Notes under the pieces: model-generated | What the model saw: only the letters and a program-made list of their open reading frames with translations | Database searches by the model: none | Told to the model about the DNA's origin: nothing | Made by a program: the position numbers and the translations under genes | NCBI RefSeq assembly: GCF_044647545.1 | Contig: NZ_CP172818.1 | Reading direction: 5' to 3' (one strand) | Source of the DNA: Escherichia coli | GTDB taxonomy: Bacteria > Pseudomonadota > Gammaproteobacteria > Enterobacterales > Enterobacteriaceae | Length of the DNA stretch: 64,000 bases | In this document: positions 18,037 to 19,195 of the stretch, in pieces | How the letters are laid out: each line of letters opens with the position of its first letter | How positions within the stretch are numbered: the stretch's first letter is position 1

Positions 18037-19020
18037 CCCGTATGCCACAGACCCGGCAGGTAACCGCCTGCCCGACCCGGAGCTGCACCCGGACAGCACC
18101 CTCAGCATGTGGCCGGATAACCGTATCGCCCGTGACGCGCACTACCTTTACCGGTATGACCGTCACGGCAGGCTGACAGAGAAAACCGACCTCATCCCGG
18201 AAGGGGTTATCCGCACGGATGATGAGCGGACTCACCGGTACCATTACGACAGCCGGCACCGGCTGGTGCACTACACGCGGACACAATACGCAGAGCCGCT
18301 GGTCGAAAGTCGCTATCTTTACGACCCGCTGGGCCGCAGGGTGGCAAAACGGGTGTGGCGGCGTGAACGGGACCTGACGGGCTGGATGTCGCTGTCACGG
18401 AAACCGGAAGTGACCTGGTACGGCTGGGACGGCGACCGGCTGACCACGATACAGAACGACAGAACCCGCATCCAGACGGTTTATCAGCCGGGGAGCTTCA
18501 CGCCACTCATCAGGGTCGAAACCGCCACCGGTGAGCTGGCGAAAACGCAGCGCCGCAGCCTGGCGGATGCGCTTCAGCAGTCCGGCGGCGAAGACGGTGG
18601 CAGTGTGGTGTTCCCGCCGGTGCTGGTGCAGATGCTCGACCGGCTGGAAAGTGAAATCCTGGCTGACCGGGTGAGTGAGGAAAGCCGCCGCTGGCTGGCA
18701 TCGTGCGGCCTGACGGTGGCGCAGATACAAAACCAGATGGACCCGGTGTACACGCCGGCGCGAAAAATCCACCTGTACCACTGCGACCATCGCGGCCTGC
18801 CGCTGGCGCTTGTCAGCACGGAAGGGGCAACAGAATGGTGCGCAGAATACGATGAGTGGGGCAACCTGCTGAATGAAGAGAACCCGCACCAGCTCATCCG
18901 CCTGCCGGGTCAGCAGTATGATGAGGAGTCCGGCCTGTATTACAACCGCCACCGCTATTATGACCCGCTGCAGGGGCGGTATATCACTCAGGATCCGATT
19001 GGGCTGAAGGGGGGATGGAA
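18037..19020 (+). repeat. About 1 kb direct repeat of the rhsC core 3' end (copy of about 16177-17159)
   Basis: Near-identical nucleotide sequence by direct comparison, with only a handful of substitutions (for example codons giving Q to L, T to A, M to I). Confidence 0.9.
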
Positions 19021-19054
19021 CCTGTATACACGCGCCGGGATATTCTACTCCTGA
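18107..19054 (+). pseudogene. Orphan Rhs core 3' fragment with no N-terminus; its C-terminal tip is truncated after 10 codons
   Basis: 315-aa ORF nearly identical to RhsC residues about 925-1225, ending [10 protein letters not shown] then [10 protein letters not shown]; an H-repeat remnant abuts it. Confidence 0.85.
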
Positions 19055-19195
19055 CTATTTGTGTCATCATTTCCGGTGCCGAAGGTTGAGAGGATCTTGA
19101 AAATTATGGCGAGACGCATCACTATTTTCTGAAGCGATATGGTGATTACGAGAATGGAATAACCAGAATGGAATCCCAGGGAAAGATCACGTAAC
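19036..19195 (+). mobile_element. H-repeat (ISAs1-family) remnant, internally deleted and diverged
   Basis: About 75% similarity to the intact H-rpt ORF region encoding [19 protein letters not shown]...QYGDFENG, then jumps to a 3'-end-like sequence ending cgtaa. Confidence 0.5.

Follow-up and report, generated by a model that had tools for sequence, protein, structure and literature searches.

An orphan rhs core joined to an H-repeat fragment in an RhsC-type element of Escherichia coli is probably a seam of chimeric assembly

Rhs elements with orphans and H-repeats at the ybfA-ybgA site are textbook features of Escherichia coli K-12. The H-rptC1-C3 nomenclature is reportedly that of Zhao et al. 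(1993, J Bacteriol 175:2799). In the MG1655 annotation, the gene order of the K-12 RhsC element is rhsC-ybfB-rhsO/ybfO-ybfC-ybfQ-ybfL-ybfD. Functional orphan rhs-CT/rhsI modules are described from Salmonella LT2 (PMC3967940), and a C-terminal displacement model has been put forward (PMC2935791). Here we analyzed a 64,000-nt stretch of E. coli contig NZ_CP172818.1 (assembly GCF_044647545.1), hereafter the window, which carries the order kdpABC-kdpF-ybfA, rhs element, ybgA-phr-dtpD. The orphan rhs gene of this element ends after three tip codons and continues into an internal fragment of an H-repeat (Table 1). Comparative sequence evidence suggests that this junction is most likely, with a probability of about 0.6, the seam of a reference-guided chimeric assembly rather than a trace of something that happened in a living lineage.

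The window resembles the K-12 RhsC element in its site and in its order, being colinear with it over leader, main gene, ybfB, orphan core, two H-repeat copies and a truncated last copy, and the 3' truncation point of the last H-repeat is identical in both. Sequence identity to the K-12 element is only 92–96%, and the two differ where the orphan ends. K-12 retains the orphan tip and ybfC, and its ybfQ has the inverted repeat, leader and codons 1–79, whereas the window has 17 nt in place of 1,383 nt and an H-repeat piece of a 78%-identical type that begins at codon 28. An earlier note on this DNA, made from the sequence alone, had proposed comparison with strains that keep an orphan tip and immunity gene at this locus; K-12 and LD39-1, which both keep the ybfO tip and ybfC there, provide it.

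The rhs part of open reading frame (ORF) 18107-19054 is a classical orphan core because it repeats the 3' core of the main gene. Positions 18035-19020 are an ungapped direct repeat of 16174-17159, with 10 of 986 nt mismatched (99.0% identity), and overall the orphan fragment corresponds to 16159-17159 at a spacing of 1,861 nt. Its rhs homology begins abruptly at 18020-18035, past the ybfB spacer, without an N-terminal or delivery region and without initiation signals of its own, and the first possible start codon is an internal ATG at 18107, where the interval given in the earlier note also begins. The window thus shares with LT2-type orphans the partial repeated core, the missing translation start and the position past the main immunity gene. 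Unlike this orphan, those of the LT2 type come with a toxin tip and the cognate immunity gene, and recombination can activate them. An rhs core is required to end with a DPxGL motif, ~17 residues and a second DPxGL ahead of the polymorphic toxin tip, and the second motif, DPLGL, holds the catalytic Asp for tip release (PMC8636562). The orphan keeps the first motif as DPIGL and lacks the second; after GGWN-LYT, its frame enters the filler, then transposase DNA, then a stop. Pfam matches of the 315-aa product are limited to RHS (PF03527, E 3e-15) and RHS_repeat, and the search found no toxin domain in it. No cognate immunity gene stands immediately downstream, where only H-repeat sequence precedes ybgA. 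The window as a whole contains no match to dsORF-f3 or to ybfC, and it likewise holds no DUF4329-type or K-12 ybfO-type tip/immunity pair. The ORF and its Pfam matches therefore confirm the claim that an orphan core without its own toxin tip lies against an H-repeat remnant. At face value the orphan is dead, since toxin, second DPxGL cleavage motif and immunity gene are all missing.

The ten-residue tail of the orphan is a composite of three sources. LYT (19022-19030) is the beginning of a genuine tip, as in the ST648-clade (sequence type 648) rhs element at rpmE; RA and the first base of G are the 7-nt filler; and (G)IFYS with the stop results from reading the H-repeat fragment out of frame. 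The homology to H-repeats starts at 19038, within codon 311 (GGG). The earlier note was right that it starts inside the last codons and without the 5' leader, although it had put the start at about 19036 and its interval ended at 19195, ~18 nt inside the next intact H-repeat, which starts at 19177. The fragment lacks the left inverted repeat, the 145-nt leader and codons 1–27. Its identity to ISEc1 copies is 78–79% over 123 nt (E 1e-21 to 1e-24), far beyond chance. An ISAs1-family element is bounded by terminal inverted repeats and encodes a complete DDE transposase; the neighbor at 19177-20468 has both, and the fragment does not qualify.

Tip codon 3 and 7 further bases are thus joined to an internal point of the H-repeat, ~225 nt inside the element. 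A junction made by an insertion sequence (IS) has its breakpoint at a terminal inverted repeat, and here the breakpoint is ORF-H codon 27/28. Neither an inverted repeat nor a target duplication was found at the junction, and the same locus in other genomes, which serves as a positive control, has its junction at the left inverted repeat. Lying away from the IS end, the junction carries no apparent signature of transposition, and nothing at it looks transposase-made. The filler CGCGCCG has no source in the window, in the ST648 loci or in the missing K-12 segment; it is unlike the RhsF-type tip (TATCCGC...) and unlike the DNA left of the ST648 fragment (AAATTAAA). If many deletions are allowed, the filler could also be aligned to the 18 nt that come next in the RhsF tip, but the string is too short for this to mean anything.

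The junction is unique in our comparisons. In megablast and blastn searches of 5,426 complete E. coli genomes, no genomic place covers at least 80% of 18800-19330, neither the junction nor the short tip was found, and the best rhs matches end at 19030. The case that would have spoken against the earlier note, the same short tip without an adjacent H-repeat in another strain, did not turn up, the short tip occurring nowhere else. Exact-pattern scans of GTDB representatives and metagenomes and a scan of 19 retrieved loci did not find the junction either. The 315-aa orphan ORF, the 197-aa H-rpt3 ORF and the 495-aa phr variant are absent from an index of 153 billion genes.

Counterparts with intact tips are close at hand. 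The orphan is colinear with the LD39-1 and K-12 orphans to 19020 and with the FDAARGOS_497 orphan to 19030. The rhs element at rpmE/yiiX of the ST648-clade strain FDAARGOS_497 is 100% identical to 13479-19030 (5,552 nt, 0 mismatches), from 1 nt before the main ATG to the third tip codon, compared with an identity of only 96.1% to K-12 rhsC. That element differs from the one in the window in having another locus, another leader and no H-repeat; IS1H comes after its dsORF-f3. Its orphan runs on with LYTYPLSPVNGMDPLGL... into a ~160-aa DUF4329 tip, and the ORF downstream is annotated "RHS element protein dsORF-f3", i.e., the RhsF position. These homologous orphans, which keep both parts, bear out the earlier statement in so far as a tip and an immunity gene are missing here; its attribution of this to a mobile-element event does not agree with a junction that is internal to the fragment and has no IS end.

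Orphans cut by H-repeats at the RhsC locus are ordinary biology. In 243 complete genomes (e.g., JNEC-KY178), the RhsC-locus orphan tip is cut by an H-repeat and no immunity gene precedes ybgA. The junction in these genomes lies exactly at the left inverted repeat (CAGGGAAAGATC) and leaves ~95 tip residues, representing a true insertion. The window junction is unlike this type, being internal to the fragment, with filler bases and only 3 tip codons left. Orphan decay of such a kind is common in E. coli; the unique internal junction with its filler is the sole unusual aspect, and an artefact is the best explanation for it. Literature searched for H-repeats together with Rhs yielded only genome papers, and Poole et al. 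2011 contains no text on transposases near orphans.

The H-repeat fragment itself has an exact match at another locus. Positions 19038-19160 are identical (123/123) to a fragment at the rhsA locus of 78 ST648-clade genomes, where a full element, starting with its left inverted repeat, breaks it off at the same point; no other 123/123 match occurs elsewhere in the 5,426 genomes, and none of them holds a full-length copy of this diverged H-repeat type. The rhsA-locus fragment is preceded by an AT-rich immunity-like region and not by rhs core. Its 5' border lies within 0–8 nt of that in the window and adjoins this unrelated AT-rich DNA; strict local alignment extends it by 8 more bases, 6 of 8 matching, and relaxed alignment is unconvincing. 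Because the 5' border of the fragment pre-exists at the ST648 rhsA locus, the truncation of the H-repeat and that of the orphan are separate events, which speaks against the mobile-element event that the earlier note had assigned as the cause. At the boundary between fragment and left inverted repeat, the window has a 14-nt imperfect tandem duplication (19161-19174; ACGAGAATGGAATA / ACCAGAATGGAATC) that the ST648 copy lacks. Farther along the ST648 rhsA locus (positions 7413-8485 of the retrieved locus sequence), the intact H-repeat adjoins with its right end the final 57 nt of an rhs core. A Tlde1-domain tip and an Imm57 immunity gene come next, making this an orphan that an H-repeat has cut from the 5' side.

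The window as a whole is a mosaic of two parents. The flank 1-13374 is 100% identical to the ST648 clade, and the flank 21394-30186 has no mismatches and one 4-nt gap. Of the 1,038 sites outside 13375-21393 at which ST648 and K-12 differ, 1,033 carry the ST648 base, 5 the K-12 base and none a private base; the core is identical to ST648, with no private substitutions over 34 kb. Two islands are instead 100% identical to MG1655, namely 30182-35422 (the ybgOPQD fimbrial operon) and 47172-53110 (mngR-mngA-mngB), and the core adjoining them differs from K-12 by ~3% right to the island borders. ST648 identity stops at 30186 and 47177 and resumes at 53107, the ancestry switches fall 0–7 nt from indel borders, and the ST648-specific islands at these sites are absent from the window. 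Such border-exact switching is, judging from the sequences, something that homologous recombination cannot do, and natural crossovers are implausible because switches 0–7 nt from the borders leave no homology. A natural hybrid formed by conjugation or recombination was therefore rejected as the main model, both island sides switching within 0–7 nt of the heterology borders. The seams of the mosaic lie at 13374/13375, 21393/21394, 30186/30187, 35422-35552, 47177/47178 and 53106-53111.

The site of the rhs element is empty in the parent that supplies the core. In the ST648 clade, ybfA is directly followed by ybgA; all 78 closest complete genomes are empty with identical flanks, and none of the complete genomes of the clade has an occupied ybfA-ybgA site. 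The site is also empty in nearly all of 31 further contigs with the same YbfA allele, one contig ending just past ybfA. A look-up of the ISEc1 transposase returned only RhsE-locus contexts. The RhsC region of the window is colinear with K-12 save for two missing K-12 segments, one of 71 nt in the leader and one of 1,383 nt that runs from the orphan tip through ybfC into the 5' part of ybfQ, and neither has an ST648 homologue. Every piece of 13375-21393 with an ST648 paralogue elsewhere carries the sequence of that paralogue, and each piece begins and ends where K-12 RhsC homology begins and ends. The alleles of one genome thus stand on the structure of the other and switch at the borders of homology, as expected of chimeric seams.

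The pieces can be assigned to their sources. The leader, the H-repeat fragment and the left-inverted-repeat region come from the ST648 rhsA locus. The leader covers only the part of the K-12 RhsC leader that is also present upstream of the ST648 rhsA-locus rhs gene, carries the rhsA-locus allele, lacks the K-12-specific 71 nt and shows ~11 single-base dropouts, purines only, relative to both comparators. Around it, ~13371-13429 is almost free of G. The intact ISEc1 has its left inverted repeat (CAGGGAAAGAT) at 19177 and a transposase ORF at 19322-20458 (378 aa; Pfam DDE_Tnp_1_assoc and DDE_Tnp_1), and its 19203-20468 (1,266 nt) equals ST648 RhsE-locus copy 1 with one synonymous mismatch. This copy is itself a mosaic, since ~25 nt at 19177-19202 resemble the ST648 rhsA-locus copy. 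The alleles of the third H-repeat track ST648 RhsE-locus copy 2 with 7 mismatches and 13 gap openings, nearly all of them single-base deletions, mostly of G, at sites where five comparator copies do not vary; so many indels for so few substitutions look unnatural. Dropouts as skipped ambiguous bases at paralogue-variable sites were considered for this copy and rejected, the sites being invariant. The following 57 nt align to the last 116 nt of K-12 ybfD, its right inverted repeat and spacer, minus nearly all T's.

The comparison directly shows the mosaic, where its seams lie, that they are garbled and that the junction is unique; from this we infer a reference-guided or polishing pipeline as the cause. 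An ST648-clade genome would have been reconstructed on a K-12 MG1655 scaffold, with unique core DNA keeping its ST648 alleles and K-12 regions without an ST648 counterpart being kept as pure K-12. The K-12 RhsC element would then have been placed at a site that is empty in ST648 and overwritten by paralogous ST648 sequence from three loci, i.e., the rpmE rhs element (main gene, ybfB and orphan core), rhsA (leader and H-repeat fragment) and RhsE (ISEc1 copies). Dropout of the 1,383-nt K-12 segment would leave "LYT + CGCGCCG + H-repeat codon 28". The artefact reading is favored because the left border of the fragment lies within 0–8 nt of alignable H-repeat homology, as an alignment-driven process predicts and as a random breakpoint does not. 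The core has three private small deletions in total, at 23355, 40737 and 44980, which are suggestive but not decisive. The first, in phr, is unique among the 5,426 genomes and falls at the site of 112 nt that K-12 has in excess of ST648; the other two sit at K-12 insertions resembling repetitive extragenic palindromic (REP) sequences, of +131 and +195 nt relative to ST648.

Several points weigh against the assembly seam. REP-type intergenic sites vary naturally, which weakens the evidence from the private deletions. A rule of filling uncovered reference leaves the drop of 71 nt and 1,383 nt unexplained, yet islands of 5.2 kb and 5.9 kb were kept. The seam further implies that the join between orphan and fragment should not be spanned by any single read, the search for a source of the 7-nt filler found none, and 129 nt at 35423-35551 match neither parent. 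The artefact itself is deduced from comparative evidence only.

The alternative that survives best, though we consider it rather unlikely, is that the junction is real. A DUF4329-type tip and its immunity gene would have been lost by an illegitimate deletion or joining that linked tip codon 3, across the 7 filler bases, to an old and already 5'-truncated H-repeat fragment travelling with an intact ISEc1, and gene conversion from the RhsF, RhsA and RhsE loci would have homogenized the rest. Tip-bearing counterparts do exist, one of them 100% identical to 19030 and then continuing into tip and immunity gene; the element is of RhsC type at both ends and shares the ybfD truncation point of K-12; and filler without microhomology is typical of illegitimate joining. 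The orphan model and recombination between main gene and orphan are established (PMC3967940, PMC2935791), the motif with the catalytic Asp (second DPLGL, PMC8636562) is absent here, and the private 129-nt allele at 35423-35551 suggests that some native sequence is present. Against these stand the 78 closest complete genomes and the same-YbfA assemblies reaching the site, all empty, and a junction seen in no other genome. A conversion tract running exactly from the ATG to the last homologous base, border-exact K-12 islands and base-specific dropouts are not natural patterns either.

A more elaborate natural history is still less probable, namely an ST648-clade strain with a real RhsC-type element in the normally empty ybfA-ybgA site that was very recently rewritten by ectopic recombination from RhsF, RhsA and RhsE of the same genome, its orphan being blanked by an illegitimate join. 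If true, such rewriting would be direct natural evidence that rhs and H-repeat copies at different loci exchange sequence. Little sign of such exchange has emerged from comparative work, and PMC2935791 states that no rhs-mediated chromosomal rearrangement has been published.

A strict IS model is very improbable; in it, the orphan tip was first hit by a transposing H-repeat, and an adjacent deletion mediated by the IS then took away the rest of the tip, the immunity gene and the 5' end of the H-repeat itself. The 243 genomes with a left inverted repeat abutting the orphan tip after ~95 residues lend it plausibility, as do LD39-1 and the ST648 rhsA locus, where H-repeat ends adjoin rhs core fragments. 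Transposase-made junctions lie at the inverted repeat, however, and the one in the window is ~225 nt inside, has 7 bases too many and lacks a target duplication. The fragment is moreover of a diverged type (78%) that is full-length in none of the 5,426 genomes, and its 5' border pre-exists at another locus beside unrelated DNA. That the short tail is a functional mini-tip, or that the orphan never had a tip, can practically be dismissed, as the existence of the ORF is all that favors it, while 5 of the 10 residues are out-of-frame transposase DNA, no toxin domain is present, an identical orphan elsewhere has a 160-aa tip and the tail is found in no other genome.

If the junction were real, the orphan would be a dead "blank cartridge" and one more case of decay in the Rhs toxin arsenal. 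If it recombined with the main gene across their shared repeat (986 nt, 99% identity), the main tip and ybfB would be lost; the orphan-activation model (PMC3967940, PMC2935791) then predicts a main::orphan recombinant Rhs without toxin and without the second DPxGL. For assembly work, it is precisely at loci with many rhs cores and IS copies that "events" are fabricated by reference-guided or over-polished assemblies. Where such loci seem to show deletions, filler bases or pseudogene decay, the assembly should be checked against the reads before any interpretation.

Table 1. Positions of the rhs element parts between ybfA and ybgA in the window
Feature	Position	Strand	Remarks
Shortened rhs leader	13375..13478	+	upstream of main gene
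Main rhs gene, 1394 aa	13480..17664	+	core to 17159; K-12 RhsC-type tip 17160-17661
ybfB-like immunity ORF for main tip, 85 aa	17732..17989	+	identical copy in FDAARGOS_497 annotated "ybfB, frameshifted"
Orphan rhs core fragment with first three tip codons (LYT)	18020..19030	+	ORF 18107-19054
7-nt filler CGCGCCG at junction	19031..19037	+	matches neither flanking source
Internal fragment of diverged H-repeat (ISAs1-family)	19038..19176	+	ORF-H codons ~28-69, in-frame stop
Intact H-repeat / ISEc1, 1,292 bp	19177..20468	+	inverted repeats CAGGGAAAGAT...ATCTTTCCCTG
Third H-repeat copy	20469..21336	+	no left inverted repeat; 3' truncation point as in K-12 ybfD
57-nt segment before ybgA	21337..21393	+	single T; ST648 identity resumes 21394

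The immunity gene of the main toxin may be defective in the ST648 clade, because the ybfB-type gene in 17664-17989 is open only from 17732 and the identical FDAARGOS_497 copy is annotated as frameshifted.

Other irregularities lie in the core. The deletion at 23355 removes 4 nt (AAGG) near the 3' end of phr (ORF 21947-23434), and the resulting frameshift gives an ORF of 495 aa in place of 472 aa. The other two private deletions, 40737-40745 and 44980-44984, fall in intergenic hairpins. The 129 nt at 35423-35551 comprise the ybgD-gltA spacer and the last gltA codons; they are ~83% identical to K-12 and absent from ST648, and 35300-35700 (401 nt) has no match above 93% among the 5,426 genomes. 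A position-wise mix of K-12 and ST648 bases was rejected for this segment on comparison; its substitutions look natural, and neither the assembly seam nor a real junction explains it. At 62579-63381, the window has seven tRNA genes (Lys-Val-Lys-Val-Lys-Lys-Lys) as in K-12, and the ST648 reference record has only two tRNA-Lys genes at this site. One of the tRNA-Lys copies in the window (63074-63148) is 75 nt long instead of 76.

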